Source: Tubulanus polymorphus (Eukaryota; Animalia; Nemertea). From it: a DNA stretch of 64,000 nt. Every line of letters starts with the position of its first letter. Positions within the stretch are counted from its first letter, which is position 1. The notes beneath the pieces were generated by a model. The model had not been told where the DNA came from and did no database searches. It worked only from the letters and a program-made list of their open reading frames with translations. Shown piece after piece: positions 3,401-63,221 of this stretch. Position numbers and translations under genes: made by a program. The stretch is taken from the NCBI RefSeq assembly GCF_964204645.1, contig NC_134028.1, forward strand, positions 19,475,653 through 19,539,652. The letters are read 5' to 3'.

Positions 3401-6400
3401 GTGAGGTTTTCATTCAAAAAAGGAAGAGCCGACCGTAAGCAATCTGATGTGGGTTTCGGACTTTCATTTTTATTTTGGCTTTCGGGAGTGGCGCGGGCGG
3501 CTTCGCAATTTGATGAGAGACAAGTTATCAATTTTGAAGGGCCTAAGGTCTGAAGGGCACTTCAACCACTCTTCGAAATGGTTGTTTCCATTGTGATTGT
3601 GCTTGGTAAAAGGAAGTTAAAGAAACAGTGGCAAATTATTCTAGGTCAGTTTATTTTAGAATAGATACATGGTGGCTGATCCGAGCCATGACGTGAAATC
3701 TTGATACGCAAATCAGGCCAAACGAAAAAACGCCAAAACAAAAGAATTTTCTTTAAAAAATCCGTTTTCGTGCCCCCCCCCCCGCTCTGAAACAACGATC
3801 GAACGTCGATTTTTCTAAAAATCAGAATTCCGTGGTTGAATGTTTGTCTTGGCGGGGGCCTGAAATACGAATTAACCGCGCTAAAACGCCAAAAAAATCC
3901 GTTTTGGTATCCCAAAGTAGATTTCTAATCGGTTTTGGCGCGCCAAAATAGATTGCTGTTCTGGCAAAACGGATTTTAAAAATACAACTCGATGGTTTTT
4001 GGCTTTCTGACGCCTCATTTACATATGGCCTGAATCAGCCACCATAAGATATTCAGAAAAGTATCTATTTCTGCTTCGTGGCTACGCCTCTCTCTTCATG
4101 TACACAACTGGACAACGCGACCCCCATTTTGAATTCTCGGAACGGCCCCACTGGGGTAGGGCCAGCCATGTCTTAGGCTCTACCGAGGGGGACATTCAGA
4201 GTAAGCAAATATAATTTTCTATTTTCAGCAGAGAAGATTCAAACCGGAAACTTGGGACCAGCACTAAATCTAAAATGAAATATCGTAGGAAAAAACCAGT
4301 ACCCATGACAACACGACCTTATACTCATACATTCAGTATAGACAGACGGGTTTTAGAGAGACCAGTATCAGCGCCATCGATCGCACAAAATCAGAACCGT
4401 TATCCCAGTCTTCACACGTATCAACCTAGAATCTGGATGACTAGTTTAGATAGAGCTGATAACACAAGACGTAACGGGCTCGATTCCGGGCGAACCGCAG
4501 CGGATAGTTTTAAGACTGCGTCATTAGATAGACTGGATCCTGAGAGAAATCGAGCCTTTTCAGATCCGACGTTTTATAACGGTAAAGAAACGTCAGTAAA
4601 TATATATCTGAAACACGACGCCGGGTCTTTTTTGCCGGAAAAGGGACATTTCCACCTAAATAAATCACACGTGGCGAAACAAGAATTGAAATTATATTCG
4701 AACAATAGCCTCAAGCTTGGCTTAAAAATCTTATCCTTAACTGCAGTAACGAAACGTAACCCTAGCTCACTCAACAACCCTAACACTATAGCATGTAGGC
4801 TCGAATGATCTGCGGCCTCCATCATGCCAGCCGAGCGCGCTAACTATACTCCAAACTTTGAGGGTTCGCCTGGTCAAAGTCGTGTGTTGGCTATTTTCAT
4901 TTATGAGCGCGACCAGTTGTGGTCACTCATTTGTGGTTTTACTTCATTTTCCTGCACTGTGTCCTTGAATCTAGTAAATTTGAAAAATATTTTGAACGAT
5001 AATTAACGAAAAATGTCATTAAAGTGAAACGTTTAAATAGATACCAATTTTCTTTAGGTCGGCATCAGGGCAACCTTTGTCGATGAGTGAAGGGGAGAGG
5101 GGGTCAGCCTGTCATAATCTCGTTTTGTTTGTTTTTTTTTGTGTTCAGCAACAGATCTTTCTTTAGAATTTTATGCTATCCCCTCAACCTCTTTTAATCC
5201 GGTTAGTACCGCGCCCGCTGCTTTCTTTCCTATACCTTCCCATATATTCTTACTTCCCAATTCGGTTCTTTTATTTTGATAATAGCTACTTCGAAACAGG
5301 CGAAATAGGTGTTACTATTCGAAAATATGTGAAACTCATTTCTATTGCCTGCAATTGCAGGATGCAGACATGAAGCATTTTGGGGGAACTATTTCAGTTA
5401 TACATTTCCCGGCTCATTAAACGAATATCAAATGCCGGGCAATGCGAGACAATCAGTACGGTAACGGGAAGATGTAGCCTGTCGTTCTTTGATAACCATT
5501 TGTGAGTGCGTTCAGGTGGGTACGGGCCCGAACTCCACTTAGTACATATGCATCTATCTATCTATCGGCAGCCGAAATTTCACAGAAAAATCCTGGCCAC
5601 GTTCTGAAGCGCGTAGTCGCTAGCGTCCCTGTCAACCTCTTATAACGAGTTTTTTAGGACCACATAACGCGTTGACGTAGCGTAGGTGCCAGTCACCAAA
5701 TCAAGTTTGAATCTCAACGTCGGTCTGATGATTCCCTTAAAACCTGTTAATCGTTGAGCAACATTCTATAATCGATTTTCTTGTTTCAAATAGTTCTGTT
5801 ATATATTTTGTAGATTATCAAAAGAAGAACCCTTTATTTATGCCAAACGATGATACACACAGTAAAGTATACAGTTTTACTAAAGATTATTCAGAAGACA
5901 CGGTGGATAATAATAAAACATGGAAGACGGATGAACTAGCTACCAGTGAGAAAAGTGATTCAGGGTTCGGTCGATCAAGTGCTTCTATAAAGCACATCCG
6001 TATAGCCACAGAACTATCATCGCCTACTTATAGTACATTAGAGGACTTAGATTTACCCCCTGAAATACACCACCATCAGGAGGTGACACAACGCCACGAG
6101 GACCCTGAACATGCGTTATACGCAGTCCCCAGTTTTAAGAAGCGCCCACCTCCCCTACCCCCACGAAGTGACGAGGGTGATGACTACCCTCCACCTCCTC
6201 AAGCCTCCTCACCCACTCACAGTGAGAATATCTCAGTAAATATTCTAGCCACCGCAACCACTAATCCCGCTGATAAGGACAGCAGGACGAGAGAACGCAC
6301 TTTGAGTGTAGTTACATCTACTAGTGATTACACCCGTCAAGGTAAAGTATAAAATTTTCAACTCGTGAAACTCAAATGCCAAACCCACGTACAAGTCGTT

Positions 6401-23690: not shown

Positions 23691-26519
23691 CGCGAGATGG
23701 GGTAGCTCGAGGGGTGTCCCTCTCGACGTTTAGAAAGTTTTGGAAAATCCTCGGGAACATGGTGGAATATGACGGCATTTGAGCGATGGTTTCTGTAAAG
23801 ATTATTACAGCCTACTGAGTCATGATAGTACCACAGCCAGGATGAGGTGTTGATAATTCAATTGCGATACCGCAATATTGATTCGGGGAGACTAAGCAGA
23901 GCAATTCAATTTAATGTAATACCTCTTTGGCATTCGTATTCAGATGAAATGCCCCGTGATTTTGAAAGTGTATATCTAAGATTGTAATTAGCTGATGAAC
24001 GTACCACATCCGTTCAAACTAAGCGCACAGATATAGGTGGGATTTGAAAAGCAATCCATGTCATTCTCTGGTAAGGAATACGGACTTTCACGTTATCATT
24101 CGGGATTATCGTTAAGTGAGTGTAATTAATACCATGGTTAGACATAATACCGCACGATAATATTTTTGACTTATGAACTGATGAATGCAGGGGCGGATTT
24201 AGGTTTTTCAAAGGAGGGTGGCTGACATGAAACGTAATGAAGAGACTGTGACCAGCGCGCCGCGCAGCGGCCAAGTCTGAGTCGCGAGGCGGGGGAGCTC
24301 GAGGGGGTGCCCCCTCAACGTTCAGAAAATTTTAAAAATCCTCGGGAAATGGTGGAATTTTGATATCATTTTTTCAGTAAAAAAATAATTACAGCCTGCT
24401 GAGTCATAGTGCCGCGGCCAGGAAAAGGTGTTGATGATCTTAATGAGATATCCGCACGATTGATTTGGGGAAGCAGGTCATTTATCAAACATTTGTCATT
24501 ATAATTTTTCAATTTGTCATAGCACTGATCTCGGGAATTTTTTCACACAGATTGGGAAAAATTTAGATAATTCTAATTGGAAAAATGACCGTTTACCGGA
24601 CACATTTTCGGCCTAGCGGAATGCCTGTAACACTGAACGAAAATAGGGCCTAATAACAAATATCGGGTGGAGCTGCACTTACATATACACGGCGTCATAG
24701 GTATGTAATACAAAGTTGTTGCGCTACGAACTGTAAGTTCTGATACCGAGGCAGTGAAGCAACAATCTTATTGGCCCAAAAATTCACAAACCATGTTCAT
24801 CTTAATTCAACAGTGGGAGTTTCAGAAACGCTACATAAGTCGATGTGAACAGATTTCTGATCTAGTGCTAACATGGAAAACTGGTGTACTTTAACCGCGG
24901 CGAATTCGATCCCTCGCACGAGTCAAGCATGACCTGGAGCGTCAATGTCTGCCGAACTGCTGCGATGACAGAAATAGGCTATTTACACGTACTAGAGAAG
25001 AAACACAAACTATATTTGTCGCAAACAGAGACGACATTCCTCGGTAATTTACTAAAAGTAACACAGGCTTAACTGGACCTTCTTTTATTTCAGTTACCTA
25101 GAAAATAAAAAATTATACAAACCATACAAACATACAAATAGAGGAAATAGGAAGTAGGAAACAAGAAATAAGGCTACAAAATTACTAATTCCAACACTCT
25201 TGAGACCTTTACCTATCCATGGATGGGGGGGGGGGGCGAATGCCACGAACATTGAAACATGATAAACCACGTAAACTTAAAATCATAAGCGTGAAAAACA
25301 TGAGCACACGAGAACAGATATCAAATATCTGGTGGGGACAACTAAATATCGGCAATAATAGCTAAGAACTGATATGACAGTACAGAATGAGACGTATTGA
25401 GAAAGATATAATAATACATGACATTTCAATACACAAACGCAGAAAGCAGATTCAATCTTCAACAATATTAAAGGACCATGCGGGTTCAGAAGGATCAACT
25501 GAGAATGTTTTACTTGAGCACAATAATCAGGTTGTTCTCGAATTTGCAATATCGTTTAACATGAAATTATGGTGCACTGTACGTACGTGTTAGTAAGCAT
25601 CTTCAACTTTGATGGTATATACATGGTCGGGGTTTTCCCATGACTCACTAGCACATGGCCGAACGAACTACATATGTTCGTGATGATGACGTCACTGGGA
25701 AAGCCCTTCACTAAAATGCTTTCCCAAGGGGCACTACACTTTTCACATTCGCTTTTCATAGATCAAATGATGCACAATCTGTGGGTTATTACATATTTGT
25801 CAAAAAAAAACTCTCACCCGATCAATAGACAATTGTGGTGTTATTAGCAGAGGCACTGAGGCTTGCACAAACGAATATCACAGATCAATCTTCACCGATG
25901 GTCTAATGAATAATTTGAATGTGGAATAAAATAATCTTTAATTTGATGAATGTCAAATTTTGCCCGATAAAGTAAACTTGACTTGGATTTGATATTTCTT
26001 GCGGAATAAGATTTTATTGAATTTGCAATTCGTGCACATGGCTAATTAACATATCACGGTCATCTATCCGATTTGAGAAAAAAGGCGGTTTTTCCCGAAC
26101 AATTGTCGAGGATGAATATTCGCTCCATTTGTACAGGCTCAGCGGACGGCTGGCCTTAATATTACCTCCCGATGTTATTACTCTTACATTATTTTGTTTA
26201 TTTCATCAACTGACATTGGCAAGATAATATATTCGTAGAGACGCGCGCGTAGTGCGCAATAGCAATTCGTGTCTGCTTATACTACGTTTGTAAGCACGCG
26301 CAGGTCGGCATTAGTGTGTGTGCTTCAGTGATGAACAACAGCACTCTCACACATCTGCGACGCGCGCGTGTTAGCATCTTTATCAGACAAACTAACTAGG
26401 CAAAGTTTGATGCAGTCCATAAAAGACTGGATAAAAGACTGCCCTCTAGAAAGCGATTACTATGGTGGCTGATAAGGGCCATAGCGTAAAATTCCTGGTA
26501 TGTAAATGAGGGCGCCAGA

Positions 26520-27104
26520 ACGCCAGAACGCCAAAACGAAAAAAAACGTCCAATTTTCTCTGAAAGTTCGTTTTGGCGCGCCAAAACAAAGAAAATTCCG
26601 TTTTGGCGCCCCCGCCAAAACGAACTTTCATTTTGGCGCCCCCGCCAAAACGAACTTTCGTTTTGGCGCCCCCGCCAAAACAACGAAAAACGTCGAAATT
26701 TCTCTAAAAGTTCGTTTTGGCGCGCCAAAACAAAGAAAATTCCGTTTTGGCGCCCCCGCCAAAACGAACTTTCATTTTGGCGCCCCCGCCAAAACGAACT
26801 TTCGTTTTGGCGCCCCCGCCAAAACAACGAAAAACGTCGAAATTTCTCTAAAAGTTCGTTTTGGCGCGCCAAAACGGAGAATATTCCGTTTTGGCGCCCC
26901 CGCCAAAACGAACTTTCATTTTGGCGCCCCCGCCAAAACGAACTTTCGTTTTGGCGCCCCCGCCAAAACAACGAAAAACGTCGAAATTTCTCTAAAAGTT
27001 CGTTTTGGCGCGCCAAAACAAAGAAAATTCCGTTTTGGCGCCCCCGCCAAAACGAACTTTCATTTTGGCGCCCCCGCCAAAACGAACTTTCGTTTTGGCG
27101 CCCC
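26520..27104 (+). repeat. Left TIR array: ~4 x 144-bp higher-order repeat of palindromic modules
   Basis: CGCGCCAAAA at 26577, 26721, 26865 and 27009 (period 144). TTTTGGCG palindromes are spaced 30,30,30,54 bp. Confidence 0.95.
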
Positions 27105-27277
27105 GGAAACGTGTCTACTCCAGATGCTGACATACAAATTATGTACATACGCATACGTACTCGTGCACGACCGCTTAATTATAATGGACACCGTTCGGAC
27201 TTGTATCCTTTTACGTAATAAAGACCAAGTTGCTCAACGGTCGATTTTGCTGTTGATCTTGTTGATGATCTTAACAG

Positions 27278-29476
27278 ATTCCTCTAGTTGATGATACTGT
27301 TCGGAAGCTTTTTGCAGATGGGTACACAAATGCAGAAATGAGGATTGCCATGTTATCTAACTTCGGAATAACTATTAGGTACGTATATATAAATTCCATG
27401 GCCTACATCAAGATGGTCTAAGAATAGATTTTAATTGTCTGCAGCTACGTATGGGCACTGCCATTTTTATTCAATATTACTCCTTATAATGATGTGATAT
27501 AGTAGTTTAGTTCACAAACCGTCTTGTTTATTTTAAACTTTCAGTGGACGCCACCTCAAACGACAATTGAATAGGTTAGGTTTGAAAAGAAACAACAATT
27601 ACGTTCTCAATGACGTAACCGCTGCAGTCGAGGAAAGTAATCCGAATTTTTGAAGTGATGCTTATATCTGATAGAAATTGAAAATGTCTTTTGGGTTTAA
27701 GATTATGTTCTCTGCATTATTACAGGTTGAGCTTGCTGGCAGCGGATGTTGCATGGGATATCGTGCTATGTCACAACGTCTCCGTCAACGCTACGGAATA
27801 AGAGCCCCTAGGTAAGATGTATGGTCGGGTGGCTACCTGCACGGTTAATTCCTGACATGATAAATGAGGGCGCTAAAGTACCAAAACGCCATAACTAAAA
27901 AAACTTAATTTCTCGAAAAATATTTTTTGGCCAAATTGAAGAATTGTCAGTTTTGTTACTCCTGACAAAAAGAACTTTCGAATCGGCCAGCATATGTATA
28001 AATGTGTATTTGATTGATGTAAGACCTTTAAGATGAGATCTGGATCACTTCACTCATGTGTTATATGATTGTTTACTTCTAGGTCTCTAGTTTCCAATAT
28101 CCTTCAGAATTTAGACTTCGAAGGAGTACAGAATAGGACCCATGGAGTTTTAAGACGACGACGTTACTTTAACAAGGGTCCCAATTATCTTGTCCATCTC
28201 GATGGTTATGACAAGCTCAAGCCTTTTGGTTTCCCGATTCATGGGTGTATAGATGGGTAAACATAATATATAATTGATATATCCTAAAAGATATTATTTC
28301 CACCTATCAACAGCAGTTGCTATAAGTTCAGAATTTGGTTTGTCGAACATGTTCATAAACACAGTCTATATTTAAAAGATTTTCCCGACGAATCCTTTGG
28401 TTAAGAGTTGGAAATACTAATAATGACCCAGAGGTGGTTGCGTGGTACTTTTTAGATTTCGTTCAGGACATTGAAGGTAGATAGAATTGTCATATATAAA
28501 TACACAATGTGCCGAAATTATGCCTGGGAAAAATTATCTGTTATCAATCGTCGATTAAGATAATACTCTGACCGTCATCTTTATATCATCATTCAGCAGT
28601 TCCTCGCTGCATCCGTATGGACGCTGGAACCGAAAATGGCAGAATTGCAGCGATTCAGAAGGCCTTTAGAGCAGAATATGATGACGAAACGTGCGTTCTT
28701 GTGGGTAGATCTACGAGTAATCAGGTTCGTGGTGTCATTAATATGGGTAGATTTGGACAATCCCCATTTCTGCGCTAGAACCAACTTAAGATACTTCAAA
28801 ACTCACCAATTATTTTATTTTTCTTTGTTTTTAGCGCATTGAACGATGGTGGCGAAGTCTTCGAAACGAAGTTGTTCAGTTTTGGATGAACGTTTTTAAA
28901 GATATGGAGGAAAATGGAAGTCTATCTACCGCGGACGTTGTGCACATGTAGGTTAAATACCCGCCTTTAAAGCGCGTGGCGATTTTTTGTGATCCACGTA
29001 GTAATTTCCCTTTCTCCAATATTTTTCAGTCAAACCTTAAGATACTGTTTTTTTGATTTGATAAATGCCGATCTTCAGGATTTCGTGCAGGAGTGGAATA
29101 CACATGCCATCAGGCCTCAACGAAATGTGGATGTTCCACCCGGAAAACCTGATCTATTATACTTCTCGCCGGAATATTACGGTACGAAATACGCTGTATA
29201 AAAATGAGCATAGGTTTCTAAGTTTACGATGTTTTTATCACTTCTTGATAATACGAAATAATATTTTCAGGCACGATAGACTACAAATTTCCAGTGGACG
29301 CTGGACTACTTCCGCAAATTCGAGAGGAATTTTGTAGTAAGCCGAATGAATCGAGAGGCTGTGATCCGGACTTTTCAGCGATGTGTGATCTTATAACGAG
29401 GCAGGGACAACAATCAAGACCGACATCAACCCCAGAAGCCGCTGCTTTGTATGACTGGCTATTAACTCAATTCTGA
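27278..29476 (+). CDS. DDE transposase/integrase (HTH-like N-terminus + RNase H fold); exons 27278-27378, 27545-27632, 27726-27811, 28083-28256, 28379-28476, 28597-28724, 28835-28947, 29030-29181, 29271-29476; start exon uncertain (ATG at 27184?)
   Basis: The spliced product reads ...FGITISGRHLKRQLNRLGLKR...GYRAM...GPNYLVHLDGYDKLKPFGFPIHGCIDGFSRRILWL...PRCIRMDAGTENG...GRSTSNQRIERWWRSLR...EWNTHAIR...GKPDLLY. The D, D and E catalytic residues are present. One donor site reads GA instead of GT (27633). Confidence 0.85.
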
Positions 29477-31081
29477 GAGCATACATGTTAGAATCATTTT
29501 TATACGTATCTGTCCTGCACGGTTTATGTGTTGTCTGTTCATGATGTATTTCGAAGATTCAAATATATCTATGATACACGTTACGCGTTGAAAAGAATAT
29601 GATTGTAATTTTTCATGGATTCATGCGACTGTTTGGGCTTAGTTATACATCATACTAACACTACCCATGTTTTAATTCGCTATCCAACCCCATCTTAAGT
29701 AGGTGTCTCAGAAATAGAATACGCGTGCCATCAATTTACATGGAGAATTATCTGCGAAAGCGTACTCCAGTATCCGCTATTCTCAAAACGCTTCAGAATA
29801 AATTTGCGTATGGTTCAAAAAGATGTATTTTTGATTGAATTTATTTTGAGAAAGTTCTATGAAGCGGTTGTTTAAAAAGTGGTCTTATGGACAAGTCACA
29901 TATCTTTCATCCTCGCATGCCAGGGGTCTGGTATCGCACCCCGAACTCGTTTCCACCACCCCCTGGCCTCACGACGCGTGATTTCATTACTGGTTGAAAT
30001 ACCTCCTTGTACGTTGATTGGTCCATTTAACGGGAAAATCAACAGAAGCCTATAATATCGTTTGCTTAAAGCGCTGTGATTGGTACGACCGGATTCTGGT
30101 CGGCTAGTAACGACTCCAACGACTCGCGAGGTCAAGGGGTTCGGGGAACACGGCTTTAGCTTAGTGAATTCGATTCCCACGACAGGTGAAGATGCATACA
30201 TTGGAACCTCGTTACAACGAACCTCTGGGGACCAGAAAATATTGTTCATTTTAACAGATATTTCGTCATATCCAGTGTGAAATTAATCAAATTGTCTAAT
30301 GTGGGACACAATCTTGTATTTGTTATGTCCGATGAATCGTTGTATCCCAGTTAGTTATAACGAGTTCCACTGTATCTCTATATGAATGTGCAATTTTGAC
30401 AGTATATAATTTAATCGTGTTCGAATACGTGCCAATGACACTTTCGTACTACGATATCATTTGCAGCTCGAGTGAAAGTGAGACACCATGAAAGAACGAA
30501 AACGCAATGAAGTGAAGATATTTGAATATTTTAATCGAAGTATCAAAGTTTCTCTTAAAAGCCTTAAAACATTATCTACGTTTTAATACCGTGTTGATAC
30601 AATATATCAATATGTACTTAAAGATGATTGTCTTACAATTTCGAGACAAAACATAACTTGACAGCAGAGAAGTGGCACCCCCAAATCGCCCTGTTTTCAA
30701 TACAAACAAAAAACGTATTTGGTCATGATTGATTCCCTAATTTGAAACGACAAATATAAGGAGCAAGTTTAACAGCTCTCGGTAAGGTTTGACTCGAGAG
30801 TCAAGTCGGTTTTTTTCAATATTTCCAATGCTTTAACTCTAGAGTCAAACTTAACCGAGAACTGTAGAACCTGGTCAAAATGCACTGCATGAATAATTAC
30901 TTCTATCATCAAAAAGATCGTCACTAAGTAATTCTATGATAAAAGAAACGACATCAGGGCTGGCAATATTAAAAATAAACACACCACTTTTGGCCTAAAC
31001 AAAAGAACTTAAACACGTTTTGATCCAACTTTGAAAATATGAAACTTACGTGGATTACGTCATTTCGTTTCTAGAATAATT

Positions 31082-33684
31082 TTATACGACGTCCATAACC
31101 CAAACATTGCTCTGGAGAATATTATCGAATTCTTGTTTCAGTTCGACGTATTCGTCATATGTTTCTGGTAACTCCAATATCTGGGCACATGTTCGAGCAA
31201 CTGGAGCTCGTTGGAGACCGTCTACCTTAGTAAAGGTCACGTCAATCTTTTGGCAGTTACAGATGTCAGAACCAGTACAATAGCGGAGGAACTTAGACAA
31301 CATGCTTTCATCCAATGATCTGACATATCTCTTCAGTAACGTAGCAACATTTGACTGAGGAGCTGACAAAACGTTTGGAAAAGAAAGTAATTCTACCACT
31401 TTGCGACAGGAGGGTTTAAGATCCGTACAAAGATCGAGGTACTGTTTATATGATATTGTTACATATTTCTGTATCATAGGTTTTATACAATCAACTATAA
31501 ATCTCGGCTTTTGCACCAATTCCTGGTGACTAATTTCCCGAATCAACATGGAGAAGTTCTCCTTCGTAGGAAGTTTCCGACATTCATATCCCCCCAGTAT
31601 GTCTATTATCTCTTCGACGTCATTTGCTTCATCATCGAAATTAGCCAATGCGCGTCGAAATACCAGCTCCTCAGACGGAGAAACATATTTCAGGAATGAT
31701 TCGACCAAGTCTACGCTATCATCCTGCTGGAAGAAAAATTCGGAAACAAATGGCTGCGCGAGGAATATTGGGAAATATGATGTTTCCTGAAATCCTTTAC
31801 TGATGATGCGTCCTACAGCCTCCCATTTCTCTGTGCCATAATCATGGCGTATGAGAGGGATCATCTGACTACTACCCGTCATACATTGCTTTCTAAATTC
31901 TGACCAAAATTCAGTAAGACACTCTCGAAAGACACCGTGTCCTTCTCCGGCTTCAACATTTCCATTAGGGAGTATCATTCGAGCATTTATTATTTTCCCC
32001 ATCACCGATGCATCACAAAAAGCGTTTATCATATCTTCGACCATGGCTGTTCTGCGAACCAGAAGGTTGTATTCTTCCCGTTCAATGCGATTAATCTCTT
32101 CTTGTGATAACTCGCCACTCGTCTGTACTCTGAATTGAATTGTAGGCGTATCAGGCTGTATCAATTCGAAATCATTAAAGTTGATATCTGCTATACCATC
32201 ACGGGAATGTGTATCATTTGCACCCGTATGTATGCCAACAGCACCGGTAGGCACATAACCAGACTGAATCCCGGCCGCAAATGGAGTTGAAAGTGTATGG
32301 GCAGATTGGGTATGCGTAGTTAAAACGATAGGTTGAATATCACTACTAGCCGAAATTGTAGATGAGGCTGCTGGCGTAAACGACAATGCCGGTTGCATCA
32401 ACGAAAACATAGGTAAAGTTGACTCAGAAATCGGTGGCTGGTGGGTATTAGCAAGAAAGGATGACATGGATGGCAAGGATGTTTCATCATCACTATCGTC
32501 AACTAAAACAGTTGTGTGAAGATAGAGCCTAATAGGGTTTGTTTTATGTGCTGCGATGTAGGCCTCTAGACCAAAAACATTACCACACTCAAGATAATCA
32601 CATAACCGATTACCATTGAAATTTGCTAAGTAATAGCTCACATCATTGATTTTTAGGTTCATCGCATTCGATTTGCCGTCTGGAAAAAATAGGTTTAAGA
32701 ACTCCATGGTTAAGGCCGACAAGTTCATTTCTTTTTTCAGGTCCAAAGTGTGTGTCCCCCCACCCTTGCTTGCAGTAACTAGTACAAAGGTCCCGCTTTT
32801 GATGGCGTGTTTCCAACCTAGTTTTATTCGTCGTATATCTTTCTCTGCATTTTTTGTCGTCATTGATTTCTTGGTGCCGGCCTTACGTTTTTGAAATTGC
32901 GTTCTCAACCTGCACAAAACACTAGATGATCCTGAAAATGAAATAATAAAGGAAAGTGTTATATATTTCAAGTAAACAATTTACAAATTTGTAAAAAGAT
33001 CCATTGATCGCAGACCCGTCGTAAGTCGAATCGCAAGGATAGAACAAGTTCTATTTCAGCGATGAGTTATGCGTCAAATGACCTTTGGACTCGGCGATGA
33101 TTGAATCGTTGTCGATCTGACTGTGACAAACGAATCGCCAATCGGCGGTCACGTGTTTACTACCGCTGTTTTTACGACGAGATGGTCGTCGTAAGTCGAC
33201 CTCAGCTTAGCTTAATCACGAGAAATAGGCACAAGCCTGCATAACCTCTCTAAAAGTATAACCCTCTGATAGCACAATCTCATGGACAGAATTGAATTAG
33301 CGTAACGGTCAGTGACAACGGTCATGAAAGTTGGAATTAAGCACGTGATTTATCTTAAAACTCAAATTATTACCTGCACTAGACACATTTTCATCTTCTT
33401 TAGGCTGAGAATTTACTATCCTACACCTATTCCTTAGCCGGACTCTATCCCCGATAGCTGTAACTCCTGCTGCTTCAAAATCACTATCTGTCATGGTCGT
33501 GACGTCACTAACACCTATCTGGATGAGAAATTAAAATATGATACATTTTCAGAAGTTATGGCCCTATAGCATTACCAATCGGGGCAAGTCTGTGTATACA
33601 TAAAGTATTGAAACACGGTACCTTATTTTCGAGAAACTTTGCAATGTATTGGCCTAATCCCAATTCTAGGAGTATGTTGTCCAT
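31082..33684 (-). CDS. SAM-domain + HECT E3 ubiquitin ligase, ~685 aa (exons 33684-33622, 33518-33374, 32931-31082)
   Basis: N-terminus MDNILLELGLGQYIAKFLENKIGVSDVTTMTDSDFEAAGVTAIGDRVRLR fits the SAM consensus. The C-terminal HECT has GEGHGVFRECLTEFW...FLRYCTGSD...PVARTCAQILELPETY with the catalytic Cys. GT-AG introns join in frame with no stops. Confidence 0.85.
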
Positions 33685-34369
33685 CTGTAAAGAAGACATT
33701 TACGAATTAACGCCATTGAATGATTATAATTCATTAGTTTTCACTAATGCAGACCGAGCAAAATAATCGTCGCTTACAATGATTAGGCAGTACGAGAGAA
33801 ACGGCTCACGTCGAAAACTTAGAATACTACCAGTACGTGTTATATTGCCTGCGCATACCAGAGAACGACATCGGTTTTTTTAATATGTTTTCAGCGGCCG
33901 AAAATCAATCGATTTTTAAAATATATTGGCATATTAAAGAACAAAGTTTATGAATAGGCCTATGTGAGCTAAGCAATGCGAGGCAATGTATAGGATTTAA
34001 ATGATACCAGGGGCTGATCCAGCATTTTTTAAGGAGTGGGGGTCGAGGGGGTACGGTGGTGCTCTGCTGGTCATCCCGAGAAATCTTAAAAACTTAGTCC
34101 CATTTTCATGAATTGTAAGCGTTTTTAGGCGCTACTTGATCATCTCATACATTTAAGATGTAGGCCTAACATGTCTACTTTGAAAAGTAGTTTTCCAAGT
34201 GAAAGGGGTTCTCGAGGACCCAAAGCAACCCCTGCATTTAACCCTGAATAGGCTACATACCTGTTCGTTAGTCCGTTAATGTATACACCACCACCATCGA
34301 CAACGATATGTATTATCACGTATACCTAGATCCGACTCGTAACAAAATCGAAGGGAGACGAATCGGATT

Positions 34370-35305
34370 TTCAAAGAAAGTTCGACGTTTTTCGCTGTTT
34401 GGCGGGGGGCGCCAAAACGAAAGTTCATTTTGGCGGGGGCGCCAAAATGAAAGTTCGTTTTGGCGGGGGCGCCAAAACGGAATATTCTCCGTTTTGGCGC
34501 GCCAAAACGAACTTTTAGAGAAATTTCGACGCTTTTCGTTGTTTTGGCGGGGGCGCCAAAATGAAAGTTCGTTTTGGCGGGGGCGCCAAAACGGAATATT
34601 CTCCGTTTTGGCGCGCCAAAACGAACTTTTAGAGAAATTTCGACGTTTTTCGTTGTTTTGGCGGGGGCGCCAAAACGAAAGTTCGTTTTGGCGGGGGCGC
34701 CAAAATGAAAGTTCGTTTTGGCGGGGGCGCCAAAACGGAATATTCTCCGTTTTGGCGCGCCAAAACGAACTTTTAGAGAAATTTCGACGTTTTTCGTTGT
34801 TTTGGCGGGGGCGCCAAAACGGAATTTTCTTTGTTTTGGCGCGCCAAAACGAACTTTTAGAGAAATTTCGACGTTTTTCGTTGTTTTGGCGGGGGCGCCA
34901 AAACGAAAGTTCGTTTTGGCGGGGGCGCCAAAATGAAAGTTCGTTTTGGCGGGGGCGCCAAAACGGAATTTTCTTTGTTTTGGCGCGCCAAAACGAACTT
35001 TTAGAGAAATTTCGACGTTTTTCGTTGTTTTGGTGGGGGCGCCAAAACGAAAGTTCGTTTTGGCGGGGGCGCCAAAATGAAAGTTCGTTTTGGCGGGGGC
35101 GCCAAAACGGAATTTTCTTTGTTTTGGCGCGCCAAAACGAACTTTTAGAGAAATTTCGACGTTTTTCGTTGTTTTGGCGGGGGCGCCAAAACGAAAGTTC
35201 GTTTTGGCGGGGGCGCCAAAATGAAAGTTCGTTTTGGCGGGGGCGCCAAAACGGAATATTCTCCGTTTTGGCGCGCCAAAACGAACTTTTAGAGAAATTT
35301 CGACG
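34370..35305 (-). repeat. Right TIR array: ~7 units of the 144-bp repeat in inverted orientation, two shortened by exact 30-bp modules
   Basis: Reverse complement of the left array. Units are 144, 114 and 84 bp. Confidence 0.95.
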
Positions 35306-37568: not shown

Positions 37569-40500
37569 ATGGCGAGCTCAGTCGTTGAAGTGTTTACTGC
37601 AGCTGTGATTATTTCAATGCTATTCCAGTCATCACAAGGTCAGTATACAACGAAAGCCTGAATTTCCGTTCACATTCACTTCTTATTGCAATTATCGTTT
37701 ATAATAATCTTAATTATCATTGATGGATTTATCATCATTTCTTAAACCTTGAAACCAAGCGGACAGAACGTCCAGTGTCTGTACAGCCTTTCATGGCTTT
37801 CAGCAGGGTCCTAATACACTTCATATTTCTATGATCCATTTACGTAACCTAATTCAATGATGATATTATAATTTCAAGACAAATTTAATGATTCTTTTTA
37901 ATACAATTCAATAAATACAATACAAATGGTGTTTTTAGTTTCAGCCAACGATGTGCAATGCTCAAATATGATCGATCTGTTAAAATCAATCCCATTGTCG
38001 AACATAAGAATGTCTCATCACGCCTTAGACGATCATTTCGACATAACTGATGCCTTAGAGGTAGGCTTAAAGGGCCAGGGTGTAAAATTCTGGTCAATTT
38101 ATTCTTTGTACAATCGTAAACAGACAATTCAGAAAAACGCTTTCTCATTATCGACAATTGATTGAGATCACTACTACTAGATAAACCTTCTGCTATTTCG
38201 GGACCCTATCGTTAATCATCGTGAATATTTGGATTTTCTGCTACTTTGCAGAAGGCTATTGTTATTTTATTCATGATAACTTTTTCCGCCCCTTCCAGCC
38301 AGTCAGTGTTCATAAAGTGTTTATCGCCTATCGAACCGACTACTATCAAAATCGCCTATCAAACCGACTACTTACAGCTACTAACGCAATGAATAATCCG
38401 CTGGCATACGTCATATCTCTAATATATGTACATTCCTTCTTATTTAAGTCGTTGAATAATACATTGTTTTACATTGTTAATGATGAATCATGAATAAATG
38501 GCATAATATCAATCGATAATATTTTGAATTTCAGTATATCAGTTATTGAATTGAATTGACCAACAACCAGTCTAGCTCAGATATATAGCGCTGAAAAATA
38601 TCAGGACATGTAAATTTATCAAACAGAAAATTAATAAAAATAAATAAAATAAATGCCAAAATTCACGATTGTAATTTTGAAGTAACGATATTGATCATGT
38701 AGTACACATCGAATCCCACAGAACCCTTCTTTAAATAACGCATAATATAGTTATCAATGTATACACATTATTGTACGGCGTCAAAAATCCGAATGATATG
38801 TAGAAATCATCGTGCGACGGCGAATTTATTTTTCACAAGTGACCAGCGCATGCGCAGTAATGAAATGGCTACCGGTATTGGATGATGCCAATCTTGATTG
38901 TCGATAGAAAATGGCGGCTTTTTAAATAGTCGTTCTATAGAGCGTCCAGAGCGTAAGGTTATGTTTACAGAGTCCAACGGGTCAGAGTTAAGTTAGGATT
39001 AGAGTAGGCTTAGGTTTAGGATTAGGGTTTTAAGGGGAAAGAACAATAGGTAAATATGTAAAAATAGGTAAACATGTAAATATAATAAAAATTGCTTAGC
39101 CGGTACTCGAGCAGTGCGTGCATGTTCAAATCCCATCTTTTGAAATCAACATCGAATTTTCTAAGACGACTAAACATACTAAAAAACTCATAAAGGTAAT
39201 TATCTAAGAGAGTTCATGTAAACATCGAGAGTTCCTGTTAATATATTGATTGAACTGCTGAAAAGTGAACTATTGTTCCGTTGACTCCTAGATGAATACA
39301 GCAGTAATAGCTGCTGTAAGTTTTTGATGGATATCCAATGCATATATATTCTGAATTCTAATTTGAAGTACATTACTTATTGCTGTCATAGAACTAGGCG
39401 TTTTTAGAAATTACAATTTTGGTTGACCTATGCATTAGTAGGCCTTCGTAACTTGCGTTTTGTTTTCTTGAGGTAATGATGGGCAATTCATCGATCGATT
39501 TTCAGTTCAACTCATGCAGTGAATCCAACGGTGCATCTAAACAATAGTTGACAAAACAATTTGACTAATAAAAAGTTTCATTTTTGATGCAGTAATTGTT
39601 TATTTCCTTCTTTTTTCTTTATTCTTTATTAATGTTATGGTTTACGTCTAGCAAAATATATGGTCTGCGCATGCGCCGGTCTCTTGTGAAAAATAAATTC
39701 GCCGTGCGACGAGTTAATTCCCTACAAACTTTACCCGACGACCTTGAGATATGTCCCATGTATTAGTAAAATAGGACTGCTCCGGAAATGTCAAATCAGG
39801 ACAGTGTCTAAGTAACATTGCCAAAATTCAACTCTATTTATATTATCAGGTTCGAATCCCAGCAATATGTTTTTTCCAGTTTCCATAATTCCCTTCAATT
39901 TGTTTGCGGTTGTTGCAGAAACCGTTTTCTCGCTGTTTGTCGCTGTATTCATTGTTATTATTACAGGGCAAAGACCATTATGACAACACAGCCGAGCGCT
40001 TATATCTGGACGATCCGTTTGGTTGGCACACTTATTCCACTGACGTTTGGGTCGAACTTGACTTCGGGAAAACGGTTGAAATCAATGATATCGTCACGAG
40101 GGGCACCGTGCATCATCTCGGAAAGTTTTGGGTTCAGGAATATCGTCTGAAATACAAGGACAGAGGCGATAGTTGGTATTACGTCACGAATGAAGATGGT
40201 AGTCCCAAGGTAAAGATGGTGGCTATTATTTGCGCAAAAGCTATTGTGAAACTGCGAATGAATGGGGAACTGCAATTATACTATAGTTTTCCTGCCAGAT
40301 GGCGTGATGAGCAGTCTTACGTTATCAGAATGAGTTCATTATCGATTTAAACTAGACTCCTGAATCCACATATTATCACAGTACTGGTACACACATACAC
40401 ACCAAATACACTTTTGATTCATTTTTCTAGTCAGTTATACGGGATATCGGCAAATTAAAGTTCTTGAATTACTCGTTTGATGGCGCTAGTCAGAACCGGA

Positions 40501-43500
40501 AATTGGAACCTAAATCCGCCATGTTTTAGTTCATTTGCAATAAAAATCTCTCGCTTCAAGTTTTTAGTTAGCGATATTTTACTTACTATACAACGGCATG
40601 CATAATCCTTTGAGTATGATATCCTGACAATGTGTTGAATTCGATAAAAACCCACTTCGAACGCTAAAGATTACTAGAAATGTAAAAAAACTACCAAAAA
40701 TAACAAATTTAGCGATGACGCTCGAAGCAGCTAACGGAAATAATGACTGGTGCCGGGTGTCATCACTTTGTTGTTGAGTTCAAGACTCTTAAGGTTAATT
40801 TATTGCAGGCTACACTGATAAATATAAAATACTATTGTGAAATAAAATTGATTTTAGAAAGACTAAACTCGTAGATTCATAATAGAAATATGAAAAGTAC
40901 CAGGACTCGAACCAACAATCAAAATTGGACCGTCAAGTGCTGCCACCATGTGACACCTGGCAACCAGTCTTTGCATCGTCAGCAGTTGCAAAATGTTTTT
41001 TGATAATTTTAGGACATTTATAGTGATTTCTAGCCTTTGCAGTGAGGTTTCATCATATCCAACGTAGTGGTAGGATATCATATTTAAAGGATTATGCGTG
41101 ACGATATATAGTAAGTCAAATATCGCTCATTGAAAACTTGAAGCGAGAGATTTTCATTGCAAATGAACTAGAGCATGGCGGATTTAGATTCCAATTTCCG
41201 GTTCTGACTAGCGCCATCAAACGAGTAATTCAAGAACTTGAATTTGTCGATATCCCGTATTGGGATAGCTTTCGTAGATAATTGATTTAATTTACGAACT
41301 AATTTCGTTCAAGATTTGGACTGGATGTAACAGTAACAGTAACAGTAACAGTAACAGTAACTGTAACATTAAGTGATGGACCGCTTTGGCGATCTTAACA
41401 CTGTTTAACGATACACAGTTGTTAGATTTTAAAGTTAATGCACAGAAGAAATTGAACACGGAGTTACTACTCGTGACACCTGGTGGATCCTTGTTTGTCA
41501 TTAGGGGAATCTTTGATTACCACAGTAGAGTTGGAAATTCCCTTTTAAACCTATATAGAATATGTGACCTTTGACAGAAAAATAGGTTTTATATATTATC
41601 ACTTGTAAAAGGCGCCGAAAAACCCTTATATACGAACCAATGATAGGATACCAAACACCTTCCGAGGTCCACACATAAGACAGGTGTTTCGATTTCTATC
41701 GGAGGCGTCAGAAGAGAATTTTCTCTTCTGACGCCTTATTGTTTCGGCCAGAATATGCGAGCTTCCTCTTCCGGAATAGCATAATAAAGCTGAGAGAAGC
41801 GGTCGGTCGAGAGTTCGTTATCCGGAATCGATATTCTTGACTCGGAAAATGTTCGACCGAAATCTGTCTAAGTAGGCTATTGACATGAGAAGTTCGAATA
41901 TACATTTCTGTGTTGAAATTATAAATCAAGAGGTATAAGCAACACGTTTCCTATTTAAGTACTCATCGGACAAATCAAGTCAGTATTGCTAGGGCCAATT
42001 ATACGGTAACATAATAACAAAAATCAGAAACAATTGGCAGCACTAGGTATATGGTTATTAACCCTTGGAGAAAATACGACTAATTTTGAGATAATGAACG
42101 ACTTTGTATTTTTTCAGCTATTTTCTGCAAACTCAGATCCCCGCGGAGAAGTACGCCATGCAGTGTATTTAACGGCGACGGCGCTGCGGTTAGAAGCAAC
42201 GAAAACTAAACGATGCTGTTTCGTCGAGTTCACCGACCCGCCGCACGTCACCGGGATGAGACTCAAGGTCGAGGGCTGTTTTACCCCGAGGGAACGAAAA
42301 CCTTGCGAACCGAACGTCGACCTCGTAAAAGCGACGTCTTTATCCGATATAAAAGTTGCCCATACGGCTAGCGATGAGAATTTCGACGTTAATGACCCAA
42401 TGAGAGTAAGAAGCTTTTTAATGTTTTTCTTATCTAGAATTCCATTCACAAGTAAGATTCATTGAGTTCGCTAATCGTGATGAGTCCTACTATTTTTGGA
42501 TCGCCAAAATATTCTTTAAAAATCAGAAGATTGGGGCCCGTTTTACTAACTCTTAGAGAGAATCCATCTCATTCGTCCTCATTCTTTTCTGGTCACTCCG
42601 ATATAACCCAACGCCGGGTACCACCACGAACCACATCACAAATAATGATGTGATGTTGTGCACCTCGACTCATCTACGAGCAATTTAGATAATTGCTCGT
42701 AGGACTCATAAACTACTGGTAACCCCTGATTAAAAACACATCATGGCATCAACGTATGGAATCATTATTGTAACGGTTCTTAGGGCGTACAAAATATGAA
42801 AATTCATCACATTTTTGAAAATAATAGTTATGAAATTCATCTAGTTACAAAATAAACGCAAAGTTTGATAGTTGTAAATGTCATTTTGAAACGCCAATAT
42901 TGATGACGTAAACACACTACCCTTTGAATAAAGCATAGCAGTAATGAGATAAGTGTCTTTTCATACCAGAGGTCGAAAGGTCGAGCTCATAAGAAATAAA
43001 AAATGAATTCTATAATTTAAAACTGTATTAAATATTTTAGGATTTTTGATTCCATTATCTATTAGTTCAGTAATTAAATATGTTGATAATATTTGATTAA
43101 TTATACTAATATTATCAATTTTATATTGTCTTGCATACAATAAATTTGTTGCTGAGATATAATGTTTAATGTTAAATAATGAAAATAAGTTATTAGTTTC
43201 TTTTCTAATATGATTTTTAGATTTTAAATGTTGTTCATAATATCTTTTGTTACTGAATGATTGATTACATGTATCACATTTATATATTTCTTTTTCATTC
43301 TTTAATTCTTCTAATTTAGTTTCTAATATATCATTATTATATTCTAATTTCAATTTATTTTCTAAATGAGATTTACTTTTATGAGATGAGTGTCTTTTCA
43401 TATCAGAGGTAGAGAGGTTGAGTGAGTAAAAAATAAAAAATAATTTCGAGCATGCGAGAATTTATTTTTTAATTTTTTATGAGCTTGACCTTTGGACCTC

Positions 43501-46500
43501 TGGTATGGAACGACACTTATCTCATTACTCATAGTAATTACTGACTATCGAGCATGTAGTAAAGGTGAATAATATAATGCCTTGATAATACCACTGTTGG
43601 TACCAATTTGAAAATATGGCGTTATAACTAATTCGGCAACGTTATAAAGAATTGTATTTCCATTGAGTTAGATAAAAAGCAAATTTAAGCTCTGAAAAAA
43701 TGTTGGCGTTTAGTGAGCGGTGGCAGCGTTATAACAGACCTTGACCTGTGTAAAAATATTCAGTAACGGTTTTTACGGCGTCAACAAATTAGTAATTAAA
43801 CCATCCATTGACTAATAATTATACAATTTAAACGAATCTTTTATAGAACGGAAAACATCTGAACGTAACAGCCGAGCGTCTGTACTTCGACGACCCGTAC
43901 GGCTGGAATACTTACGCCGCTAAAGTTTGGCTGCAATTAGACTTCCATAGAACGGCTGAAATTCACGCGATCGTCACCAAAGGAACGATCCACCACATGG
44001 GCGTTATCTGGGTCAGAGAATACCGTCTGAAATACCAGAAACCAGGAAACGATGACAGATGGTATGATGTCACAGATGAGAACGGGAATCCCAAGGTAAA
44101 AGTGATCGAATCTTTAAAACAATTAAGTAGGCCTAAACTTGGCTATGGTAAAAAGGCTGTCAATTATCGTGCTTCCTAAGAAAAGCGGTAGGGTATGTGT
44201 AAATTATCTATAATTCGGCTGACGACTCTAGATCTAAAATTTGAAATGATTCTGAAAACTATCCGGTGTATTTGAATTTACATAATCATAAAACAACCCT
44301 ATCATTTGTTGATTTCATAAATTTCCAAAATACATGAATACATTCAAACAAATAAAAAGAGGATCGCTATGATATATGTAATAGGAATCTGATATCATTC
44401 TAACGACACATTTCTGTAGCAAATGTAGGTATTGCTGATTCGTTACAGTAGCTTAAGTATGGTTCAACTAAATCAAAATATAGAGTATAGATTGGGGTAA
44501 TGGGCGTTTTAATCTATTCAATATCCCTACACTGTGGGGAACCTTATGTCGAACACAACCCAGGAAGAAAGCCACTAAATATTTGGATGGATATATGAAA
44601 GCTGTGGGTACTGGAGTGTGTAATGGGTAGTGTAGTGTGATCTGTGTGAATTTGTGGCCAGCACACAGATCACATTGTTCATTGGGGTTTATTATTTTTT
44701 TTCAACAACACGGAAGTAACGTGTAATAAATGATGACTTGAATTGCATGACTACCTACCACCCCTCATTATTGTTGGAAAAGTAAAGGTTCCGCACTGAC
44801 TGAAAATTAGTAATAATAATTAATAACATTTTAGAAATGGCCAGAATTTAGGTTCTATCTCATTTTTATTTTACAATTGCGATTGGTATAATTTTTTTTT
44901 TAAACGGCCGTTAAGGCTTCATGTTTCGTTTGCAATTCACTGCAAATAGTTACGCAACTATGCACATTTCAGTGTTTTTGGCAGCTGTACACTCAATTGG
45001 CACCGTTCGTGACTAGCTTCACTGCGGAATTATCATTAATTAACATCGCCATATCACATCATCAACTTATATTGTGCCTTAAAACCCTAACAGCCGAAAT
45101 AATTGAAATGCACACGCGATTTCTATCATTGAAAATTGAGAGAGTGGCCATGTTTGTGTTTGCTGCTTCGCGTAAATCCCGCGCGGTGGCGCATCCGCGC
45201 GGAGTGGGGCCGATACGTCTAGGAAATTAGTATTTCGGCCCTGTCAATTGCTTGACCACTTATTTGAATTGAAGTATTATCAGGTAAATTGGAACTGAAC
45301 ACAATGAAATGCGTCTTTTTTAAGTTTAAAGATAGTTTGTTGGCTTGGATCCACTCGGCCAATTTATCATGTGCGTAGTTCAGGGTTTGCACTAAACGTA
45401 TTAAATGTATATGTTTGAAACTCTGAGGTAAGCCTAGGTGACAATTGGAGTCCAATGTCCAGTTTGACTCTAGGGTTAAGACACTACAAGGTATATTTCT
45501 AAAAGAAAAAATACTGCGACAGGTGGTTTTGCAAAGTCATTAAAGATTAAGATTAAAAGCCTCTAAGGATATAATTCTTCCGATTATGGTGGGAGAAGTC
45601 ATGAAGAATGAATAAATTAATGAAGATTAAAAAATCGGAAATATGAAAATAATAAACGAAACATGTTGTTCATTTTGAAAAGAAGCACCGTGATAAAATG
45701 TAGATTTAAAGTATTATATAATCATACATTATGAAAAACGGAATGAAATGAAACATGCTACGGTAAGTATTCACGTAATCAAATTGTAGAATAAAAAAAG
45801 TATAAGAGAATAAAGAATTTAATTGAATATAAGCCACGAGAGAAGAGCAAAGAGATTTAGTCAATCAATATCCGGCGCGGCTTAAAATAAAGAAACCCCT
45901 CAAAATGAATAAACTAAAATGCAAGATTTTTGCTTTTGAATGATTTGTAATTTCCCAGAATAGGCCTAAGGCTCATATAACTCTGTATTTTTGAGTTTTA
46001 AATTTTGTAATCAAAAGATCTAAAAATAGTATTCATCATTAGCGGGACGTCGATTCGGCAATAATTTTTCAGGGAAGCCGGAGCTGATAAGCCTTTCCCG
46101 AAAGGGAAATGCGCATCCGTAGTCGAAAAAAAACTTATTGCTCATTAAATTTGATAAATGAAAAATATGATACGTTGTTTTCTGATTACTTATAGATTCT
46201 TAATTCTATTTGTGTACTGTCTACTTAATTGTGGAAATCCGGAAACAATAAACTGGGAACAAAAAAGTATATTTGAACTTGAATTGAGCCCATTAGGTGG
46301 TGGTATTGGAAGACACCAGGCGGTTTGGTCAACTTGATATGCTCTAGCGCCGTGGTGCTATCGCAAAAAATAAACTTATTCGAACTGTTAAACTTAATCG
46401 ACAACAGTAGAACTGGGTCCAAACACAATACAAAAAACCTCATCTAGTAATCAGACACAGTCAACTCGAACTTTTGGCCTACCAAACCTAACATTCTAAT

Positions 46501-54200: not shown

Positions 54201-54749
54201 AAAGTGTATGGGTGATTACATATTCGTGGATTATTTCAACGCGCGCAGCCATGACCTATGGAATGGAACACAGTGACCTACAACCGTGGATAACTCATAT
54301 CACCGGATGATATAAACATTAGTAATTTTAATCACGCCAGTAACTGTTTACGCGTTTACACCTGGAACTTTAATTGTTCAACTACAAATTGCATATGCGG
54401 ATATTATAAAAAGACACTAGAACTACGCTGCGACTATTTCATATCTTGTACCTATCTTCCGGCGGGGGAGGATGTCTGTGACGCCATTCAGTTTGACACA
54501 ATTCTTTCTATAGTTTATAGTTTGAACCGCTCTTATCAGTACACTTTCATTCAGGCATTACGGTAATTCGACTCTCTTTAGATAAACGACTATTTCCAGG
54601 CATCACCCACGTCTCTCTTTCCTCTGCGCATGCGTATATAATCATAACCTTATAGTTTTAGTAAAATATATTCAGTTAATCATATGGAAATTCATGAGTT
54701 AGATCTGATCAATCGATAGTCGCCACTCGGACGGCCAGAGTCGACGACA
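48264..54749 (+). mobile_element. Full-length BEL/Pao LTR retrotransposon
   Basis: 277-bp TG...CA LTRs (48264-48540, 54473-54749), 5-bp TSD ATCCG, PBS TGGTGCCGTGACCAGGAT (tRNA-His-like) at 48542, and a polypurine tract GGCGGGGGAGGA before the 3' LTR. Confidence 0.97.
48656..54045 (+). pseudogene. BEL/Pao gag-pol polyprotein (DUF1759-type gag, three zinc knuckles, aspartic protease, RT, Pao peptidase/RNase H, integrase) with disabling lesions
   Basis: LPVFDG..W..FW, CxxC...H...C knuckles, LLDNCS, ADIAKAF, YVDN, FSDA, DFTG, SDNAKTF, APWMAGVHER. Stops at 48746 and 50992, plus a frameshift near 48930. Confidence 0.9.
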
Positions 54750-54920: not shown

Positions 54921-55478
54921 TATGGTGGCTGATAAGGGCCATTGTGTAAATTTCCTGGTATGTAAATGAGGGCGCCAGAACGCCAAAACGAAAAAAAACC
55001 CTCAAATTTTCTCTGAAAGTAGTTTGTTTTGGCGCGCCAAAACAAAGAATGTTCCATTTTGGCGCCCCCGCCAATACGAACTTTCATTTTGGCGCCCCCG
55101 CCAAAACGAACTTTCAACCACGTAAAATAATTCTATATATGCGAATTTATGCAAATTACACACAGGATCAACGCGCCAAATTGAAAAATAATTTTACTGT
55201 GGTTGAATGCTTGTTTTGGCGGGGGCGCCAAAACGGAAATAACCGCGCCAAAACGAAATAATCTTTGTTTTGGCGCGCCAAAACGAACTTTCAGAGAAAA
55301 TTTGACGTTTTTCGTTGTTTTGGCGGGGGCGCCAAAACGGAATATTCTTTGTCTTGGCGCGCCAAAACGAACTTTCAGAGAAAATTGGACGTTTTTTTTT
55401 CGTTTTGGCGTTCTGGCGTTCTGGCGCCCTTATTTACATACCAGGCATTTTACGCTATGGCACTTATCATCCACCATA
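54921..55478. mobile_element. Non-autonomous (MITE) member of the 26461 transposon family
   Basis: TATGGTGGCTGATAAGGGCC ... GGCACTTATCATCCACCATA termini, internal palindromic modules in inverted orientation, perfect 6-bp TSD GGTATT (54915-54920, 55479-55484). Confidence 0.92.
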
Positions 55479-58897: not shown

Positions 58898-59326
58898 TTA
58901 AAAAAAATTATTTTTTTTGCTTTTTTCTAAAATATTAATCCATTTTTTTATTGTCAATTTTGGAATTTCAGAAGTATTTTCATTTTTGATAGCAGTTGTT
59001 TCAGAATTATAAATATCATGAATTTTATTTGATTTCTTATACCAATTACGCCCAATCAAAATGAATACAATTACAAATCGAACTGTAAAATATAAATATT
59101 TATCAAATATTTTATTACCAGAAGGAGTAGAAATAACAATATTTTCACTATTATTAAAATTTTCATTATTTATTCCTTCTTTTTTAGCTTTTTTATATTC
59201 TTGTGATTTAATTCCAAATTGCCGAGACCATTCATTTTGTTTCGGACTTCTCAGGTTTTTCTTCACAGTTAATTCCTTCACTTCTTCCACTTCGCTCATT
59301 AATTGTAGAAAAATTTCTACTTTCAA
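58898..59326 (-). pseudogene. Polinton-associated hypothetical ORF, probably partial
   Basis: Lys/Asn-rich open frame with a short hydrophobic stretch and no clear ATG start. Confidence 0.35.
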
Positions 59327-59374
59327 TATTCGAAAATGTTATAACTCCAGTTGATAATAATGTCATAAATCCAC

Positions 59375-59833
59375 TTATTGAAATGATAAATATCCAATCC
59401 ACTTATTTAATTCAGTCATAACTAAATAATCATTTTTTAAATCGGAATAATATCTTTTTTCATCTTGAATTGGCAGCATATAATTACATAATTTAATATA
59501 ACTTTTTACTACATTTTCTGATATCACGTCATTAATTCTAGCTATTCTCGCAGTTTCATAAATCTTAAATAATTTAATAATTTCATCTGATTTCATTGTA
59601 TCTAATTCATTATAAGTTAAATTTTTACTAATAAAACTTTTACATTTCCCAGATGCTATTAATATTTCTAATTGATGTTTACAATAAAGATAATATTCAT
59701 AATTATTATTTGTTGTGACATTATTTAAAGCACCATCATCTGGAGTTAATTTTGTTTCTGTTATTCCTATATCATCTAAAGTTTTTTCAATTGGAACATC
59801 GCCATTTTTAGATTTTTTCTTTTCACCTCCCAT
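59375..59833 (-). CDS. Polinton-associated hypothetical protein (152 aa, possibly truncated)
   Basis: Open frame with a TATAAATG start context, downstream of the ATPase on the same strand. Confidence 0.55.
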   Translation of the reverse strand: MGGEKKKSKNGDVPIEKTLDDIGITETKLTPDDGALNNVTTNNNYEYYLYCKHQLEILIASGKCKSFISKNLTYNELDTMKSDEIIKLFKIYETARIARINDVISENVVKSYIKLCNYMLPIQDEKRYYSDLKNDYLVMTELNKWIGYLSFQ

Positions 59834-59866
59834 TTATATAACAAAAAAATTAGTTGTGATGTTGCG

Positions 59867-63211: not shown

Positions 63212-63221
63212 ATTCTTGGGA

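Follow-up and report, generated by a model that had tools for sequence, protein, structure and literature searches.

Positions 26461-35305 of the window (the whole stretch of DNA analyzed, 64,000 nt of contig NC_134028.1 from the ribbon worm Tubulanus polymorphus) hold what is, judged by its sequence, an IS3EU/GingerRoot DNA transposon (Table 1). Between two long inverted arrays, whose arms (26547-27053 and 34799-35305) are 98% alike over 507 nt, lie two convergent spliced genes, one for a transposase and the other for a predicted ubiquitin ligase (E3) of the HECT type. An initial annotation of this DNA had described the arrays and exactly two genes between them; both descriptions hold, though high-copy repeats are nested between the genes, where depth reaches ~1700 versus ~50 and many ends are loose.

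Table 1. The element, its genes and related sequences, in positions of the window. TIR, terminal inverted repeat; TSD, target site duplication; MITE, miniature inverted-repeat transposable element; AF2, AlphaFold2; pLDDT, predicted local distance difference test score.
Feature	Position	Strand	Remarks
Left TIR	26461..27104	+	TATGG end, ~70-bp unique part and four units of 144 bp; flanked on the left by GATTAC
IS3EU transposase gene, 10 exons, 388 aa	27184..29476	+	D139-D198-E235; exon 1 uncertain
Transposase exons	27184-27214, 27288-27378, 27545-27632, 27726-27811, 28083-28256, 28379-28476, 28597-28724, 28835-28947, 29030-29181, 29271-29476	+	gene model
GA..AG intron of 93 nt (non-canonical GA donor)	27633..27725	+	sequence; 93-nt skip in run X4; RefSeq models treat it likewise
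Nested high-copy short repeats (MITE-like)	29940..30370 (limits approximate)		between the 3′ ends of both genes
E3 gene, 3 exons, 685 aa	31082..33684 (33684-33622, 33518-33374, 32931-31082)	-	no stop or frameshift
Bilobed HECT domain	31085..32080	-	Pfam HECT E 3.5e-8, above cut-off
Predicted beta-grasp (ubiquitin-like) domain	32492..32860	-	invariant GGG and FFPxG; AF2 pLDDT 81.5
Right inverted array	34375..35305	-	truncated at 35305, without terminus or TSD
Older MITE with the same type of termini, diverged	3668..4046		75% over 83 nt; TSD inexact
Non-autonomous derivative (sister MITE), 558 bp	54921..55478		TATGG..CCATA at both ends, perfect 6-bp TSD GGTATT

The transposase had been described as a gene of at least nine exons with an intact D-D-E triad, and our model retains all three motifs (HLDGYD, RMDAGTE and NQRIERWW). 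Near-identical RefSeq proteins belong to T. polymorphus, and one of them (P0046) matches Pfam rva_4 with an E value of 1.2e-38; the first D and the E are invariant in 53 of 53 aligned rows. Skips in run X4, which we took to be RNA on the strength of its splice joints, fit introns 3-9, seven of the nine introns of the model. Introns 1 and 2 are absent among the X4 joints displayed (a further 48 were not displayed), and exon 1 differs among the RefSeq models. We ruled out that the GA donor is a pseudogene lesion, since the intron is spliced in X4; a GA-AG intron could limit transposase output. Within intron 4, 57 nt at 27847-27903 are 81% like the element's terminus and represent a relic of it. 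The same species encodes a second IS3EU transposase family (P0048 and P0177, 56% identical), and close transposase relatives are annotated in Xenopus tropicalis and the bullfrog (P0237 and P0238, 67-68% identical to a fish-type query).

For the second gene, the initial annotation had proposed an uninterrupted SAM-HECT protein of ~685 residues with its catalytic Cys. The length, the unbroken frame and the Cys stand; the SAM assignment is weak (Pfam SAM_1 E 0.078 on exon 2), and a ubiquitin-like domain must be added. The order is thus a SAM-like start, a basic patch, the ubiquitin-like domain, ~140 disordered residues and the HECT domain. The first 70 residues of a fish homologue match mostly SAM clusters in the Atlas, with scores of only 0.75-0.82, and the N terminus of the E3 matches a profile of homologue N termini (E 1.1e-7). 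The ubiquitin-like domain aligns with that of USP11 over 86 residues (VIA Z 8.3, root-mean-square deviation 2.8), nearly all top rows being beta-grasp folds, and its best Foldseek E value is 1.7e-3. In the AF2 model, both HECT lobes are retained and folded with high confidence, and the domain matches that of HUWE1 over 392 columns (Foldseek E 7.2e-13). The catalytic Cys, C651 (codon 31187-31189), lies within PVARTC; all 24 aligned proteins share this Cys and its Thr neighbor, and a W-x-M-D-hydrophobic tail is kept in at least 90% of rows. Neither Pfam nor the AF2 model revealed RING/PHD fingers or a DNA- or chromatin-reader domain. In one X4 contig, 205 letters of other sequence, near the 208 nt that exons 1 and 2 total, precede a match that begins at the boundary of HECT exon 3, which suggests that the E3 transcript is spliced. 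Named homologues are annotated as uncharacterized, hypothetical or unnamed; in one clade (P0014-P0022 and P0045) the SAM-like start is missing and the linker contains a CxxC...CxxC finger.

The element was expected to have TAY...RTA ends and 6-bp TSDs. The left end of this copy (TATGG) fits, as do both ends and the TSD of the sister MITE, whose ends are 86% and 95% alike to the element's first 100 nt; the right end and TSD of this copy do not appear. Its right array breaks off mid-unit at 35305, so that the terminal ~85 bp and the CCATA end are gone, and a search at this array for an end matching the element's first 100 nt found none. No TSD is visible, since this end is lost and GATTAC, the left flank, is not found again past the right array; of seven GATTAC sites beyond 34000, none follows a terminus. 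A distant right end partnering 26461 was also sought in the window, where the only other ends are those of the two MITEs. A deletion, an insertion or a misassembly may account for the loss. Between 35306 and 35460, a short word in the orientation of the left array follows the truncated array, and different repeat-like DNA comes after it. Through the lost end this copy is probably immobile, but it could still supply both proteins.

The arrays are also rich in TTTSSCGS, the E2F consensus. Of the 105 matches in the window (chance mean 12.6), 80 lie inside the arrays (26572-27101 and 34398-35280), a count for a pattern picked after inspection of the sequence and inflated by the repeats; many of the array matches form the palindrome TTTTGGCGCGCCAAAA. 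Possibly these sites serve as an S-phase promoter, and possibly they are just transposase sites.

Both genes are present in several copies. In run X5, which comes from another study and of which ~12% was read, reads taken at likeness cut-offs of 90 and 93 cover the transposase to a mean depth of 48.7 and HECT exon 3 to one of 53.7, compared with ~10 in the flank, the single-copy baseline being 9 of 30 flank bins chosen by the analyst. Contig depth in X1 is 231 and 218-321, compared with 20-28. Since depth over both genes exceeds that of the flank in X5 and X1, there are roughly 5-10 copies carrying both. At the terminus at 26461, 633 X5 reads end and run into unrelated flanks (agreement 0.38); depth there (~1000) comes mostly from the MITEs. 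The many unrelated flanks, together with a RefSeq transposase cluster of 12 T. polymorphus proteins from at least nine named loci on several chromosomes, mark a dispersed multi-copy family. An X1 flank contig terminates exactly at 26460, as a branch between filled and empty sites would, an observation that is suggestive only.

The same gene pair recurs in other elements. Among metagenome contigs the HECT alignment yielded 54 loci, of which we kept 52, leaving out L053 (a weak match on a gene-dense contig, with no transposase within ~10 kb on either side) and L054 (no HECT match on a repeat search). Where at least 2 kb lie downstream of the HECT gene, 18 of 22 loci hold a transposase core, always on the opposite strand and thus convergent; two shorter loci raise the paired total to 20, in 10 groups by DNA likeness. 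Upstream, a transposase match occurs at one of the eight loci with at least 2 kb, and all three upstream matches are N-terminal scraps in decayed copies. Inverted repeats surround both genes in L002, L007/L008 and L043, and L007/L008 (two contigs, one locus) has TACG..CGTA termini with GGTTTC outside both ends, in keeping with a 6-bp TSD. The arrays of L002 and L007 are built of units other than those in the window. At L048, L049 and L052, an inverted piece of the transposase N terminus precedes a remnant of the HECT C-lobe; we rejected a fusion of the two, as they are out of frame and the copies decayed. Viral contigs yielded no relative of either protein.

Fish annotations point the same way, with the proviso that accession numbering is indirect and says nothing on orientation or TIRs. 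All eight tilapia transposase accessions listed for one cluster in GenBank adjoin a HECT accession number, and eight of ten listed HECT accessions have a transposase-numbered neighbor (15 of 23 and 15 of 21 cluster members being displayed); one transposase of a different cluster is without a listed HECT partner. In the pipefish Syngnathus typhle, seven of eight listed transposase loci are 1-8 locus numbers away from a HECT locus, and further transposase/HECT number pairs occur in Fundulus, Sarotherodon and Simochromis.

The initial annotation had suggested examining selection on the HECT gene and the phylogenies of both genes, and each speaks for a conserved pair. The ratio of nonsynonymous to synonymous substitution (dN/dS) is 0.20-0.48, indicating purifying selection, in 8 of the 14 HECT pairs computed; among the others three are saturated, two have dN = 0 and one has dS = 0, and the pairs are non-independent. 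With 18 paired rows (L024, L031, L047 and L048 having been dropped as short or redundant), eight of the nine starred transposase clades are also starred in the HECT tree. An earlier distance test, on its own set of 18 rows, gives rho 0.24 (p 0.009). That test hinted at module swapping at L006, which the approximately unbiased (AU) test does not support (p 0.125).

How does the element compare with known ones? Elements of the IS3EU type end in TA..TA, mostly show 6-bp TSDs and belong to a single lineage with GingerRoot (PMC10045372); in fungi their termini read TAYGG..CCRTA (PMC12730594). The element shares such ends, the 6-bp TSD, an aquatic animal host and an IS3/IS481-like D-D-E core, whose motifs are, compared by eye, those of Repbase IS3EU-1_DR and IS3EU-1_HM (supplement of PMC10045372) and of IS3EU-1_CGi; its TIRs are tandem arrays of 0.6-0.9 kb, as opposed to 100-150 bp in GingerRoot. 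The initial annotation's placement of it in IS3EU is supported. IS3EU structure and function have been described as largely unexplored (PMC11934779). By sequence the element is an IS3EU of a lineage with a dedicated HECT gene. No HECT or ubiquitin gene is named for such elements in the passages searched of the IS3EU/GingerRoot literature (PMC10045372, PMC12730594 and PMC6839031), the word HECT has no occurrence in the supplement of PMC12730594 as far as its long cells are complete, and among the papers listed for a transposon-borne HECT or an anti-silencing E3, none was on topic by title or abstract start. The label IS3EU-1_CGi_2p suggests a second protein in Repbase. Close in plan are TET-carrying IS3EU elements of rust fungi, which have the same termini and a second enzyme gene opposite the transposase; unlike ours, that enzyme is an alpha-kinase, accompanied by TET/JBP, and not a HECT, and the TET/JBP genes swap between superfamilies (PMC12730594). 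The highly divergent HECT domain recalls the class IV HECTs G2E3, GL-Metazoa and GL-Bikonta (PMC3673628), from which the element's E3 differs in having no RING/PHD fingers, in its SAM-like and ubiquitin-like N terminus, and in being multi-copy and mobile. The initial annotation had proposed that G2E3-like HECT annotations in animals may be such elements; a single lead supports this, an Atlas look-alike cluster of the E3 named G2E3-like (score 0.95), and named homologues are otherwise labeled.

Because read depth, the recurring convergent pairs, the fish pairs, the matching trees and the dN/dS values agree, we conclude that the HECT gene is no one-off capture but a fixed component of an IS3EU lineage. 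It is neither single-copy nor absent from other copies, and the earlier view of it as a dedicated, recurring and conserved element gene is upheld. We are highly confident of the two-gene layout, the multi-copy state, the spliced transposase RNA, the recurrence of the convergent pair, the purifying selection and the matching trees. What the E3 does is a matter of graded confidence. From the HECT fold and the Cys we infer a ligase, and the E3 is probably catalytically active. For the fuller reading, that this multi-copy IS3EU/GingerRoot element has, traveling with it, a predicted HECT ligase whose likely substrate is the transposase or transposition complex of the element itself, we find ourselves evenly divided. 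The transposase itself is the candidate target that we tentatively favor, since the E3 tracks its own transposase lineage, unlike the TET/JBP cargo, which groups by host; since the E3 has no chromatin-reader domain; and since, for a self-target, any host with a ubiquitin-conjugating enzyme (E2) and ubiquitin would do.

In such a scheme, the transposase would bind the terminal arrays and, as its family suggests, move the element by cut-and-paste with a 6-bp duplication, mobilizing the MITEs too. The E3 would be charged at Cys651 with ubiquitin from a host E2, and its SAM-like and ubiquitin-like domains may recruit the substrate, or the proteasome or p97. Spent transposase would then be removed from the DNA or turned over, so that transposition is completed or limited. 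A bolder version is somewhat less probable: that ubiquitination of the transposase (or of a host silencing factor) by the self-encoded HECT is a required step of transposition, and that many multi-copy 'uncharacterized' or 'G2E3-like' HECTs in fish and invertebrates, perhaps even the HECT of host G2E3, stem from these elements.

Several observations weigh against this interpretation. As to the pairing, the RefSeq 90% clusters of T. polymorphus hold 12 transposase proteins versus one HECT protein, the latter numbered next to a transposase fragment, a count that by itself would point to a rare HECT gene, and 4 of the 22 metagenome loci (L003, L023, L039 and L050) have no transposase. The ninth transposase clade (L006 with L018/L025) is missing from the HECT tree, yet it is not rejected (p-AU 0.125); deep nodes are poorly settled, and the long rows from the window itself find no placement. 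The earlier, cruder distance test, on 11 one-per-family rows, showed no correlation (rho 0.04, p 0.37). Physical linkage alone, moreover, suffices for matching trees and names no target. As to the protein, no HECT joint is among the X4 joints displayed and HECT coverage in X4 is low. A sequence-profile search of solved structures with the very divergent HECT had no match, and the fold matches share just 12-19% identity: the HECTs of HUWE1, UBR5 and NEDD4 (PDB 6xz1, 8p83 and 4be8) have the predicted bilobed fold and Cys position in common with the E3 but belong to single-copy host genes with other N termini and a different C-terminal tail. HECT ligases typically need a Phe at position -4 from the C terminus for transfer; the E3 ends in WVMDVV, with Met at that place. 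The HECT of G2E3 is reported as non-functional (PMC3673628).

One alternative is that the E3 acts against silencing or defense by ubiquitinating a conserved host protein, such as a piRNA or heterochromatin factor, a histone or a repair factor, thereby releasing the element from control; the initial annotation had named host silencing factors, chromatin and the transposase itself as possible targets. The alpha-kinase opposite the transposase and the TET/JBP genes of fungal IS3EU elements are read by their author as an escape from silencing (PMC12730594), the T. polymorphus transposase is transcribed and spliced, and the ubiquitin-like domain resembles those of Polycomb and SATB1 among many, although a shared fold is no proof of function. 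We nevertheless consider this less likely, given that searches of the E3 revealed no domain that reads DNA or chromatin and that its gene keeps to its transposase lineage, whereas host-directed TET/JBP cargo groups by host and crosses superfamilies (PMC12730594). It is less likely again that the E3 is inactive as a ligase and serves as a needed accessory, binding E2, ubiquitin or the transposase in the manner of a scaffold or decoy. The extreme divergence of the HECT, the reportedly inert HECT of G2E3 (PMC3673628), the G2E3-like name of the Atlas look-alike and a tail that is atypical by the Phe rule would suit such a role; the invariance of the Cys and its Thr neighbor and two confidently folded lobes speak against it. 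That a host HECT gene was captured once or lies here by chance is very improbable, as GingerRoot elements do capture host gene fragments but not whole genes (PMC6839031), and the single HECT protein annotated in the T. polymorphus cluster is outweighed by the equal read depth over both genes, by the signs of purifying selection, by trees that match and by the convergent pair, which recurs in 10 DNA-level metagenome groups and in fish annotations.

Elsewhere in the window, 48264-54749 is a BEL/Pao retrotransposon with identical 277-bp long terminal repeats and two long open reading frames (ORFs). Exons of a host gene with F5/8 type C domains lie at 39800-44000. An ORF at 58900-60726 encodes a Pox_A32 packaging ATPase (E 1.5e-9) and adjoins ORFs without a Pfam match, possibly a Polinton-like remnant. 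At 60989-64000, long overlapping ORFs with a reverse transcriptase (E 4.8e-25) in a DIRS-like layout are truncated by the window end.

If our interpretation is correct, a ubiquitin ligase kept as a fixed transposon gene would be a new way to steer a transposase or a host. Since near-identical, intact, multi-copy elements are present in this ribbon worm and in fish (tilapia, pipefish and killifish), direct testing is feasible. For annotators, reported expansions of G2E3, such as that in a hadal sea cucumber, whose 20 copies were interpreted as adaptation (PMC9700323), merit a look for a facing IS3EU transposase.

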